From: Candidatus Omnitrophota bacterium
Lineage (GTDB): Bacteria; Omnitrophota; Gorgyraeia; Zapsychrales; Zapsychraceae
Direction: 5' to 3'
Assembly (NCBI GenBank): GCA_023247445.1
Contig: JAHFGL010000003.1
Location: 14,128 to 78,127, forward strand
Length of the DNA: 64,000 bases
The first letter of the stretch is position 1. Each line of letters starts with the position of its first letter. This document shows positions 3,789 to 62,284 of the stretch, piece after piece. The notes below the pieces were generated by a model that was not told where the DNA came from, ran no database searches, and saw only the letters and a program-made list of their open reading frames with translations. The position numbers were made by a program, and so were the translations under genes.

Positions 3789-4708
3789 TGATCAAATTTT
3801 TCTCGTTTATAACTCGAAAAGTATTTTTTCTCTACATTGTAATCTTTTTTATCGCTTATCGTTTTTTGGATTATCAAAGCGTATTTGAGATTAGTCGGTT
3901 GAAAACCTTGAACCGGCTTGTGCCGCCGTCTTTTAGTGGTCTTGTCCAATATAGTCAGGGCACAGAACAGTTAAAGAAAGAGGACTTAGAAAGTTATTTG
4001 TATTATTTTAATAAAGTCATAGAATATGTTCCCTATGAGTCAGACCTGGCGGATGCGTATGGCATGTTGGGATTTTGTTACTATGCCAAGGGAGAGCCGC
4101 ACAAGGCGATTGATTTTTACAAAAAAGCCATCGGTCTTAATCCGCATTTCTTTTGGTTTCACTATAACCTTGGTCTTATTTATTACAAACAAGGCCGTTA
4201 TAAGGAAGCGATGGATAGTTTGGATCATGCTATTTCTTCAAATCCGGGAGTTATTGTTGAAGTACTGAAAACATCCAGGATTTACCGCCAGGTTATGGAG
4301 TTATCAAAGTATTCTACGCAAAACATGGACATTGGATTAAAGACAGTTTATCGCAATGCTTATTTGCTTTTGATTACGATGCATGATGCTCGTAAAGATT
4401 ATCCAAAGATGTTTGATTATGCCGGTGTTGCTATTGAGGTGAAGCTAGATGATGACGGTTTATTTTATTTTTATCAGGGATTGGCAGCCTATCGTTTGAA
4501 ATCATATAATAATGCGATTTTTGCTCTACAGGAAAGTCTTCGCCGAAACCAAAACAATGCCGACACTTTTTATTATTTTGGTTTATCATTAGATGCTGTT
4601 GGGAAAAAAGATTATGCGCAGGCCTTTTTGAAGCAAGCCGAGGTGAGAAGAAGAGTTACCCAGGGGTATTCGTTTGACCCACAGAAGGTTAATTTAAAAA
4701 TATTTTGA
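3788..4708 (+). CDS. TPR-repeat protein with N-terminal TM anchor; paralog of 6940-7863
   Basis: AYGMLGFCYYAKGEPHKAIDFYKKAIGLNPHFFWFHYNLGLIYYKQGRYKEA is a classic TPR pair; start overlaps the upstream stop (ATGA). Confidence 0.6.
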   Translation: MIKFFSFITRKVFFLYIVIFFIAYRFLDYQSVFEISRLKTLNRLVPPSFSGLVQYSQGTEQLKKEDLESYLYYFNKVIEYVPYESDLADAYGMLGFCYYAKGEPHKAIDFYKKAIGLNPHFFWFHYNLGLIYYKQGRYKEAMDSLDHAISSNPGVIVEVLKTSRIYRQVMELSKYSTQNMDIGLKTVYRNAYLLLITMHDARKDYPKMFDYAGVAIEVKLDDDGLFYFYQGLAAYRLKSYNNAIFALQESLRRNQNNADTFYYFGLSLDAVGKKDYAQAFLKQAEVRRRVTQGYSFDPQKVNLKIF

Positions 4709-55878: not shown

Positions 55879-55980
55879 ATGCCTTGCGGAAGAAAACGAA
55901 AGTTACGCAAGATCCGAACGCATAAGCGAAAGAAGCGACGAAAGGCTTTGCGTCATCTTAAAAAACGAGCCACGCAATAA
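55879..55980 (+). CDS. 33-aa highly basic small protein, bS22-like (ribosomal protein S22 / AURKAIP1-type) candidate; not in the ORF track
   Basis: MPCGRKRKLRKIRTHKRKKRRKALRHLKKRATQ; RBS ggggag 8 nt upstream. Confidence 0.45.
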   Translation: MPCGRKRKLRKIRTHKRKKRRKALRHLKKRATQ

Positions 55981-57885: not shown

Positions 57886-58266
57886 ATGGAGATTACAGAA
57901 ATACGTGTATTTCTCAAGGAAGGCCAAGATAAGAAATTAAAAGCGTATACAACAGTTACTTTTGACAACGCTTTTGTGGTTCGAAATATAAAAGTCATTC
58001 AGGGATCAAGCGGTCTTTTTATAGCTATGCCGTCGAGAAAGATGAAGCATGCTTGTTCCAAATGTAATTTTAAGAATGAAGTAGGCAGTAAATTTTGTAA
58101 TCAGTGCGGGGCACAATTACCAGTAATAACTGAGCATGAAGTTGAGGGGGATAATAAGTTAGAGCATCGTGATATTGCTCACCCTATAACGCAGCAATTT
58201 CGTGAATACCTACAGAATAAGATTTTAGAGGCCTTCGCAAAGGAAACTTCGGCAACAGGTCATTGA
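57886..58266 (+). CDS. spoVG: SpoVG family protein with a ~36-aa Cys4 zinc-ribbon insertion
   Basis: MEITEIRVFL...FDNAFVVRNIKVIQGSSGLFIAMPSRK...RDIAHPI is canonical SpoVG; inserted ACSKCNFKNEVGSKFCNQCGAQL between the conserved blocks. Confidence 0.8.
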   Translation: MEITEIRVFLKEGQDKKLKAYTTVTFDNAFVVRNIKVIQGSSGLFIAMPSRKMKHACSKCNFKNEVGSKFCNQCGAQLPVITEHEVEGDNKLEHRDIAHPITQQFREYLQNKILEAFAKETSATGH

Positions 58267-58474
58267 AGCAAAATCTTCCTAAAGGTAAACTCAAATAAAT
58301 AGAAATTTTGATAGTTCTTTTTAATGATTCGATTGTGATTTGTTGTGATGGTTTTGCCCGCCGCTTGCTTTTTAGAAGATTGTGAAAATATTGCCCGGCC
58401 CTGATTTATTTGAATGTTTTGTGGAAATCAGGACTGGTCAAAATTTTTTCTGGATGATTTAATGTGGTAATTTT

Positions 58475-58545
58475 TGCCCGGTGGTGTAATGGTAACACAG
58501 CAGAATTTGGATCTGCTTTTCCAGGTTCGAATCCTGGCTGGGCAG
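58475..58545 (+). tRNA. tRNA-Gln (anticodon UUG), CCA not encoded
   Basis: cloverleaf by hand: acceptor TGCCCGG/CTGGGCA (U1-A72, as in bacterial tRNA-Gln), D-stem GTGT/ACAC, anticodon stem GCAGA/TCTGC with loop ATTTGGA, T-arm CCAGG-TTCGAAT-CCTGG, discriminator G. Confidence 0.8.
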
Positions 58546-58598
58546 TGGTTCGACGCGCTCCAACATAGTTGGAGCTTGCTCACCATTGTTGCGTTGAA

Positions 58599-58640
58599 CC
58601 ATCCTGAGCAAGTGAGTGCAACGAACGCGTCGAAGGAAAA
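58599..58640 (+). repeat. degenerate MITE remnant (TIR-like accatcctgagc...gtcgaagg)
   Basis: accatcctgagcaagtgagtgcaacgaacgcgtcgaagg resembles the short-form left half gtcatcctgaggaacgcagtgacgaagg. Confidence 0.3.
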
Positions 58641-58669
58641 TAGTTACCTCTATTTAGAAATTAAATTAT

Positions 58670-60958: not shown

Positions 60959-61669
60959 ATGGAAGAAATTAAGTTAGATGTTCAAGTTAGAAATCGAATT
61001 GGAAGCCGTAAGATTCGATCGGTTCGTTCACAGAATTTTGTGCCGGCCGTTGTCTACGGAGGCAAAAAGCAGCAACCTACGACCATCCAGGTTGATCGCA
61101 AAGCCTATGAACGCATCATGCGTAATCATCGAGGAGAAAGCGTGCTCTTTCATCTTAACGTGTTAGATGGAGAGAAGAAACTCAAAGATTATTCCGCTAT
61201 TGTTAAGGAAGAACAACTTGATCCTGTACGTGATGGGGTTTTGCATATCGATTTCTATCGTATTTCTTTAACGGAAGAAATTGAAGTTAAGGTTAAGATT
61301 GTTGCACGCGGCGAGGCCATTGGTGTCAAGCAAGGTGGCGGATCGCTCGAGCATGGTTTATGGGAACTCGATGTTATCTGTTTGCCGACGAAAATTCCAG
61401 CAAAGATTGAGGTTGAGGTCGCTAACTTAAATATTGGTGATGCGATTCATGTTAAAGAACTTGTTTTGCCCGAAGGTGTCAGAACAAAGCATGATCCTGA
61501 CTCAATTGTCGTTTCTGTTGTTCCACCGATGAAAGAAGAAGTTGCTCCTGTTGATGGTGAAACAATCACTGAGCCAGAAGTAACAAAAGAGAAGAAGAAG
61601 GTAGAAGGCGCTGCTGACGCTAAGGCTGAGGGTAAAGCAGAAGAGAAACCGAAAGAAAAAACTAAATAA
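60959..61669 (+). CDS. rplY: 50S ribosomal protein L25 / general stress protein Ctc (long form)
   Basis: GSRKIRSVRSQNFVPAVVYG ... LHIDFYRI; K/E-rich C-terminal tail. Confidence 0.85.
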   Translation: MEEIKLDVQVRNRIGSRKIRSVRSQNFVPAVVYGGKKQQPTTIQVDRKAYERIMRNHRGESVLFHLNVLDGEKKLKDYSAIVKEEQLDPVRDGVLHIDFYRISLTEEIEVKVKIVARGEAIGVKQGGGSLEHGLWELDVICLPTKIPAKIEVEVANLNIGDAIHVKELVLPEGVRTKHDPDSIVVSVVPPMKEEVAPVDGETITEPEVTKEKKKVEGAADAKAEGKAEEKPKEKTK

Positions 61670-61690: not shown

Positions 61691-62284
61691 TTGTCTGAAT
61701 TGCAACTTATAGTAGGTTTGGGAAATCCTGGCAAAGATTATGAATATACACGACATAATTTGGGATTTCTAGTTGTTGAGCAGTTAGCTAAAGAATTAAG
61801 TTTTCGTTTTAAAAAGAGTTCTTTTACAAAAGGATTTGTAGCCGAAGGCCAGTTTGAGGGAAAAGATGTTGCGCTTCTTTTACCACAAACATTTATGAAT
61901 CATTCTGGCCTCGCTGTAAAACCGATGGTCCAACATAAGAATATTGAGTTATCAAATATTCTAGTTGTTTGTGACGATCTAAATTTGGATTTTGGGCAGA
62001 TGCGGTTGCGGCCCAATGGTTCAGATGGTGGCCATAATGGATTAACTTCTATTAACGAACTTTTGGAGTCCAAAGAATACGCGCGGCTACGGATGGGGAT
62101 TGGTCACCCTGGGCACAAAGATCAAGTGGTTGATTATGTGCTTACAGAATTTAGTAAAGAAGAAAAGAAGGATCTCGATAACTTTATTGAACAGGCGACA
62201 ACGTGTTGTCTGGTGTGGTTGCGAGATGGGATGAATCAAGCTATGGATCAATTTAACAGAAGGAATAAAAATGGTAAAGAATGA
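61691..62284 (+). CDS. pth: peptidyl-tRNA hydrolase
   Basis: LIVGLGNPGKDYEYTRHNLGF, TFMNHSG, NGHNGL motifs; TTG start. Confidence 0.85.
   Translation: MSELQLIVGLGNPGKDYEYTRHNLGFLVVEQLAKELSFRFKKSSFTKGFVAEGQFEGKDVALLLPQTFMNHSGLAVKPMVQHKNIELSNILVVCDDLNLDFGQMRLRPNGSDGGHNGLTSINELLESKEYARLRMGIGHPGHKDQVVDYVLTEFSKEEKKDLDNFIEQATTCCLVWLRDGMNQAMDQFNRRNKNGKE

Follow-up and report, generated by a model that had tools for sequence, protein, structure and literature searches.

The spoVG gene of a Candidatus Omnitrophota genome, which lies in a 64-kb stretch of DNA analysed here as a whole (the window), encodes a protein whose two ends are those of SpoVG and whose middle carries four cysteines. The question it raises is whether this middle segment is a genuine part of the protein, whether it has been seen before, and what it might do at a place where SpoVG proteins bind nucleic acids. 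We propose that the gene is the ordinary spoVG of its lineage and that the segment, which is conserved across a large group of bacteria, is a predicted zinc-ribbon module that probably enlarges the nucleic-acid-binding surface of the protein.

The assignment to SpoVG, made from the two ends of the protein in an earlier sequence-only reading, is borne out by family and structure comparisons, and the 126 residues that the frame encodes are those given in that reading. The Pfam family SpoVG (PF04026) matches the window protein with 99.4 bits (cutoff 29.6) in a single stretch in which residues 1–118 fall on model positions 1–81, so that about 37 residues lie beyond the family model. Residues 1–52 and 93–117 align with the solved SpoVGs of S. 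epidermidis (2i9x, 2i9z) and B. subtilis (2ia9), and R51-K52 and H94-RDIAHPI of the window protein align with K-R and F-RDIAHPI of the S. epidermidis protein; H99 and P100 are invariant in an alignment of 141 sequences. The solved SpoVG structures are all of the insert-free form, and Foldseek against the PDB retrieved all of their chains with the AlphaFold2 model of the window protein at probability 1.0 and a target-normalised TM of 0.67–0.80. With canonical SpoVG (PF04026), to which the DNA/RNA-binding regulators of S. aureus, B. burgdorferi and L. monocytogenes also belong, the window protein thus has in common the fold, the basic pair ahead of the turn, the RDIAHPI motif, the C-terminal helix and an ancient gene neighbourhood, whereas it differs in carrying a 40-residue ribbon plus linker where canonical SpoVG has the four-residue turn TPDG. 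The closest named relatives are "septation protein SpoVG family protein" entries of Candidatus Omnitrophica/Omnitrophota. The NCBIfam equivalog for the septation regulator SpoVG (NF009749) matches the window protein in two stretches with 92 bits, under its 108-bit cutoff, because the ribbon insert splits the alignment; that this cutoff is missed is probably why NCBI gives the relatives the name "SpoVG family protein", and PGAP can be expected to give this name, and not SpoVG, to the whole insert-bearing clade.

The setting of the gene (Table 1) points in the same direction. The gene order in the window is hisG, a TPR-protein gene, ispE, spoVG, tRNA-Gln, glmU, prs and then the genes for L25, pth, S6, ssb, S18 and L9; among related loci, ispE lies directly upstream of spoVG in 86 of 116. 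The order ispE...spoVG-glmU-prs-ctc-pth is what we take to be the classical neighbourhood of Bacillus subtilis. Conservation of the ispE-spoVG-(tRNA-Gln)-glmU-prs-L25-pth neighbourhood identifies the gene as the organism's ordinary spoVG and rules out that it is a paralogue instead of the orthologue. We conclude that the window gene is the chromosomal spoVG orthologue and the standard SpoVG form of its lineage.

Table 1 Features of the spoVG gene, in positions of the window.
Feature	Position	Strand	Description and basis
Complete spoVG CDS	57886..58266	+	126 codons plus stop, ATG start; ORF list and sequence, Pfam SpoVG match
SpoVG core, N-terminal part (residues 1–52, strands b1–b4), ending with R51-K52	57886..58041	+	Aligns with residues 4–54 of 2i9x, 2i9z and 2ia9; pLDDT 82–94
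Zinc-ribbon module, predicted (residues 53–79)	58042..58122	+	Pfam DZR and Zn_Ribbon_1 matches; invariant Cys; model; Foldseek
Cys codons of the zinc-ribbon module	58054–56, 58063–65, 58096–98, 58105–07	+	Sequence
Variable acidic linker (residues 80–93), chain back to the SpoVG core	58123..58164	+	Entropy, length spread, pLDDT, charge
SpoVG core, C-terminal part (residues 94–118), HRDIAHPI motif and recognition helix	58165..58239	+	Aligns with residues 59–83 of solved SpoVGs
Non-conserved short C-terminal tail (residues 119–126) and stop codon	58240..58266	+	Entropy 2.81 bits

The segment that sets this protein apart occupies residues 53–92, which stand in for the TPDG of the solved SpoVGs (chain residues 55–58), a net insertion of 36 residues. 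The alignment to these structures and the Pfam match confirm the earlier claim that a Cys4 segment is inserted in the TPDG loop, while the spacing then given for it, C-x2-C-x12-C-x2-C, has to be corrected: direct reading of C57, C60, C71 and C74 yields C-x2-C-x10-C-x2-C. In the insert, a conserved 27-residue Cys4 ribbon (C-x2-C-x3-N-x6-C-x2-C) comes first, and the linker behind it is variable, acidic and disordered. The pattern MP-x7-C-x2-C-x10-C-x2-C is present in 355 of 356 retrieved homologues, with the four cysteines at the same place, and within the ribbon of these homologues N64 is conserved at 97%, K63 at 86%, G75 at 95% and a Phe or Tyr before the third cysteine at 95%. Mean column entropy in the 141-sequence alignment is 0.79 and 1.03 bits in the two core parts, 1.31 bits in the ribbon (residues 53–79) and 2.96 bits in the linker (residues 80–93), which ranges from 12 to 28 residues across homologues; in the window protein the net charge is +3 for the ribbon and −4 for the linker. 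Judged by these alignments, the ribbon is under purifying selection and the linker can change freely in both sequence and length.

Larger searches returned the same architecture. A search of 5.8 billion proteins gave 7,843 matches, and in the best 120 of them (74–100% identity, 121–153 aa) the positions of the four cysteines are always the same. From 1.84 billion representatives at 50% identity, an exhaustive HMMER search yielded 4,260 SpoVG-like clusters, and 149 of the best 150 cluster representatives contain the insert. The sole exception among these 150, P0126, is a protein of 388 residues with four tandem SpoVG domains (Pfam 331 bits in four stretches) that has no Cys4 ribbon and slightly longer loops at the ribbon position.

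Evidence that the insert resembles a zinc ribbon comes from family models and from structure prediction. Searched alone, it exceeds the gathering thresholds of two Pfam zinc-ribbon families, DZR PF12773 (28.1, gathering 27.3) and Zn_Ribbon_1 PF13240 (26.8, gathering 25), while within the whole protein the ribbon scores 25.6 and 23.9, respectively, slightly under both. In the AlphaFold2 model built on the 141-sequence alignment (mean pLDDT 79.5) the SpoVG core is confident and the ribbon, with pLDDT of about 80, is predicted to form two short hairpins with strands 54–56 and 63–65 that run on directly from the R51-K52 strand; residues 82–90 have pLDDT below 50 and are predicted to be disordered, confidence is low at residues 97–99 too, and the modelled helix comprises residues 103–124. 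After the SpoVG chains, the Foldseek matches in the PDB (0.7–1.8 Å over 25–29 residues) are NZF/RanBP2 zinc fingers (Trabid NZF1, TAB2 NZF and fingers of Nup153 and Nup358) and archaeal ribosome chains, and the ribbon superimposes on the NZF and RanBP2 fingers with an rmsd of 0.7–0.9 Å over 25–27 residues.

RanBP2-type fingers follow the consensus W-x-C-x(2,4)-C-x3-N-x6-C-x2-C with a G-D-W-x-C signature and mediate protein or single-stranded RNA interactions (PMC7154859). The window ribbon has the spacing C-x2-C-x3-N-x6-C-x2-C, including the conserved Asn, in common with RanBP2/NZF fingers (PF00641), and its likeness to them in fold is a property of the model; it differs from RanBP2 fingers in that G-D and the Trp are absent, the sequence there being H55-A56-C57. 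Membership in the RanBP2/NZF family is ruled out by the absent Trp signature and by PF00641 scores of 15.8–18.6 against a cutoff of 27. Against the PF13240/PF12773 zinc ribbons the insert, with its two CxxC knuckles, passes both thresholds when searched alone and narrowly misses both within the whole protein. In contrast to these families, the window ribbon is an internal loop insertion in another domain and not a terminal or tandem module. The Pfam matches, the model and the Foldseek results lend support to the proposal of the sequence-only reading that a zinc ribbon is built into SpoVG, and we therefore regard the insert as a Cys4 zinc-ribbon-like module with a predicted metal site.

The distribution of the insert was traced in a scan in which each GTDB species was represented by a single genome and the query was a degenerate DNA pattern encoding MP-x7-C-x2-C-x3-N-x6-C-x2-C-G; it gave at least 120 matches, and after translation, 115 of the 120 matches listed are true SpoVG-ribbon genes. 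Among the matches listed, at least about 96 true loci bear Planctomycetota labels (Brocadiia, Phycisphaerae, Gemmatales and Pirellulales among them), at least nine are labelled Omnitrophota, and one each is assigned to Auribacterota (L019), UBP3 (L066) and a "PVC group bacterium ex Bugula neritina" (L010). Two loci labelled "uncultured bacterium" only (L007, L011) resemble Planctomycetota/Phycisphaerae loci. The loci with Planctomycetota labels also include those of the cultured isolates Roseiconus nitratireducens and Stieleria magnilauensis. Five matches (L026, L059, L064, L070 and L071) turned out on translation to be unrelated zinc-ribbon proteins that fit the pattern by chance and were discarded; L059, at about position 3941 on the minus strand, is a Chloroflexia protein in which three or more zinc ribbons with C-x2-C-x10-C-x2-C spacing follow one another in tandem (CAVCGAPNTATVRFCTNCGRPMA is an example).

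Some labels conflict with the phylogeny of SpoVG itself. Five loci (L032, L040, L049, L089 and L115) have non-PVC labels, namely Alcaligenaceae, Bacteroidales, Actinomycetes and Peribacteria, at odds with this phylogeny, and 49–81% identity to Planctomycetota sequences; because they are Planctomycetota-like they are probably mis-binned and give no evidence for the insert in other phyla. Four loci labelled Planctomycetales/Planctomycetia (L030, L053, L085 and L094) nest among Omnitrophota in the tree, and the protein of L030 is 80% identical to the window protein. It is likely that mis-binning or automated mislabelling lies behind these conflicts.

The farther relatives of the window protein (40–55% identity, 200–520 aa) are labelled Planctomycetes, Planctomycetota or Phycisphaerae. 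The Planctomycetota homologues have the C-x2-C-x10-C-x2-C motif in common with the window protein at this overall identity, and they differ from it in their long tails, which are low-complexity stretches of 100–400 residues rich in Pro, Glu, Arg, Ala, Gly and Asp (for example, residues 122–344 of P0146), whereas the tail of the window protein has 8 residues. In a neighbour-joining tree of about 125 positions, computed without support values, the Omnitrophota, Auribacterota and UBP3 sequences and that of L010 group together in a single clade, separate from most of Planctomycetota; in the NCBI taxonomy, Omnitrophota and Auribacterota both belong to the PVC group. Such a tree is what vertical descent would give and may be taken as an indication of it. 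Across the sequences compared, SpoVG with the insert is the usual form in a large clade of bacteria that includes Planctomycetota, Omnitrophota, Auribacterota and UBP3.

An insert at this position of SpoVG has been reported previously. Gupta, Bhandari & Naushad (2012) described "a 36 aa insert in a conserved region" of SpoVG (32–36 aa in the figure legend) that was found in all sequenced Planctomycetes and absent outside the phylum, and they proposed it as a conserved signature indel; their text nowhere mentions zinc or cysteine and uses the insert solely to mark a lineage, and at the time there was no genome of candidate phylum OP3 (now Omnitrophota) to compare (PMC3444138). The Planctomycetes insert occupies the same conserved b4/RDIAHP position as that of the window protein, and its range of 32–36 aa takes in the net 36 residues found here. 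Where Gupta et al. found the insert to be exclusive to Planctomycetes, however, we find insert-bearing relatives labelled Omnitrophota, Auribacterota, UBP3 and PVC group as well. In addition, precomputed Pfam annotations already place PF13240 and/or PF12773 together with PF04026 on many insert-bearing proteins. The sequence-only reading had taken the architecture to be undescribed unless the segment proved to be common; in view of the 2012 report, the existing Pfam tags and the frequency of the insert in both the cluster search and the genome scan, this claim of novelty has to be given up. The titles and abstracts listed for SpoVG with zinc, zinc ribbon or Omnitrophica included none on a metal site in SpoVG. 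The insert-bearing architecture is thus known and common. What is new here is the occurrence of the insert beyond Planctomycetes, as far as the sequence labels indicate, and its recognition as a Cys4 ribbon at the predicted SpoVG binding site. The former corrects a marker published as phylum-specific.

As to function, the position of the ribbon is suggestive. SpoVG cannot bind DNA without K50/R51 in S. aureus or without R53/R54 in B. burgdorferi, and its sequence specificity is determined by six consecutive residues in the neighbouring helix (Jutras et al. 2013; PMC3688583). These pairs have R51-K52 as their counterpart in the alignment with the window protein, whose ribbon begins one residue further on. 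Because it adjoins nucleic-acid-binding residues, a role of the ribbon in nucleic-acid binding or metal sensing is reasonable, and we favor, as the probable explanation, that it is a structural Zn(Cys)4 knuckle extending the nucleic-acid-binding surface of SpoVG. In our model of this arrangement, the four cysteines would bind one structural Zn(II) and the segment would fold into a two-hairpin knuckle. R51-K52 would correspond to the pair through which characterised SpoVGs touch the backbone of the nucleic acid, with the knuckle following one residue later and ahead of the specificity helix, and this placement between the two would hold the knuckle at the rim of the binding pocket. The conserved basic and aromatic residues K59, K63, K/R69 and F/Y70 might then add contacts to RNA or single-stranded DNA and shift affinity or specificity, and the acidic linker could provide a flexible tether or compete from within the protein for the binding surface. 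Most of the conserved ribbon residues (K-F before the third cysteine and G after the fourth) are presumably generic to the PF13240 consensus and are no proof of a SpoVG-specific contact with nucleic acid.

Also speaking against a nucleic-acid role is that the structurally similar NZF and RanBP2 fingers bind proteins more often. The ribbon might accordingly be a module for protein–protein interaction or oligomerisation that makes no contact with nucleic acid, and that either recruits a ribonuclease, RNA polymerase, a ribosomal component or a division protein or else stabilises SpoVG oligomers. The best structural matches of the ribbon are NZF/RanBP2 fingers that bind ubiquitin or Ran, RanBP2-type fingers mediate protein as well as RNA interactions (PMC7154859), and canonical SpoVG binds nucleic acids without any ribbon. 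We nevertheless consider this explanation unlikely, given that these bacteria have no ubiquitin or Ran system, that no conserved partner gene other than housekeeping genes lies beside spoVG in related loci, and that the insertion point directly adjoins the basic pair that contacts nucleic acid.

A further explanation is that the Cys4 site acts as a switch for redox state or metal availability, in which oxidation or loss of zinc would unfold the knuckle, turn SpoVG binding on or off and so tie the regulon to oxidative stress or zinc status. The site would be suited to this, with four invariant thiolates in a small, solvent-exposed domain that adjoins the binding residues. Zn(Cys)4 sites serve as redox switches in Hsp33, RsrA and ChrR-type anti-sigma factors, which gives the idea precedent. 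However, none of the 355 homologues is a Cys-free paralogue or variant of the kind that zinc-sparing systems typically have, and this retention of the four cysteines counts against a switch for zinc availability; moreover, neither the window nor the related loci have Zur or oxidative-stress genes in the neighbourhood of spoVG. A switch therefore strikes us as improbable, more so than a protein-binding module.

Least of all do we believe that the additional residues are an artefact, be it a frameshift, an error of assembly or a recent mobile insertion, or that they are a functionless neutral expansion of the loop. This notion has in its favor only the prior expectation that an unusual insert in a metagenome assembly may be an error, and we give it practically no credence given that four contigs from three independent samples encode an identical protein with the same neighbours, that the insert recurs in nearly all of the best cluster representatives and at no fewer than 115 verified genome loci, cultured isolates included, that the four cysteines are invariant and the entropy of the ribbon is near that of the core, that base composition is uniform, and that the insert was published independently in 2012. 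Frameshift or assembly error is specifically ruled out by the intact open reading frame, by this identity across contigs and samples and by an architecture common to the homologues. A recent mobile or foreign insertion is ruled out by GC content and skew, which are uniform across spoVG with no compositional anomaly, and by the lack of a second intact copy of the motif: within the 64-kb window no other copy was found in an intact open reading frame, the one other match to the pattern being interrupted by stop codons.

Returning to the structural knuckle at the binding surface, which remains our preferred explanation, we can tentatively extend it to the history of the group. The ribbon could be a single ancient insertion, and hence a shared derived character uniting Planctomycetota, Omnitrophota, Auribacterota and UBP3 to the exclusion of Verrucomicrobiota, Chlamydiota and Lentisphaerota, and SpoVG in these lineages could be an RNA binder in two parts that depends on zinc, is possibly gated by redox state and occurs in this branch of the PVC group alone. 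We offer this as a speculation, less probable than not by some distance. As a rare genomic change, an insert of this kind offers a character by which the deep branches of the PVC group can be ordered. SpoVG is widespread and its mechanism is poorly understood, and a natural variant that bears a predicted metal-binding knuckle beside the binding residues could aid the mapping of the binding surface by comparison.

Finally, we note several features of the DNA around spoVG. For regulatory RNA in this region, Rfam gave the tRNA-Gln only, and a promoter and terminator scan around the gene gave matches no more numerous than in shuffled sequence. The tRNA-Gln(UUG) gene lies at 58474–58546 between spoVG and glmU (window 58267–58669), and no intrinsic terminator is predicted in the 207-nt spacer 3' of spoVG. 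A 33-codon open reading frame that separates hisG from the TPR-protein gene (window about 55879–55980, plus strand) matches no Pfam family and is a called gene in two sister assemblies. The start of pth is ambiguous, TTG at 61691 giving a protein of 197 residues as against the 194-residue gene called in a sister assembly, and pth shares its last 14 nt with the beginning of rpsF (window 62271–62284). Ribosomal protein L25/Ctc (window 60959–61669) carries a C-terminal extension of about 40 residues that is rich in Lys, Glu and Ala.
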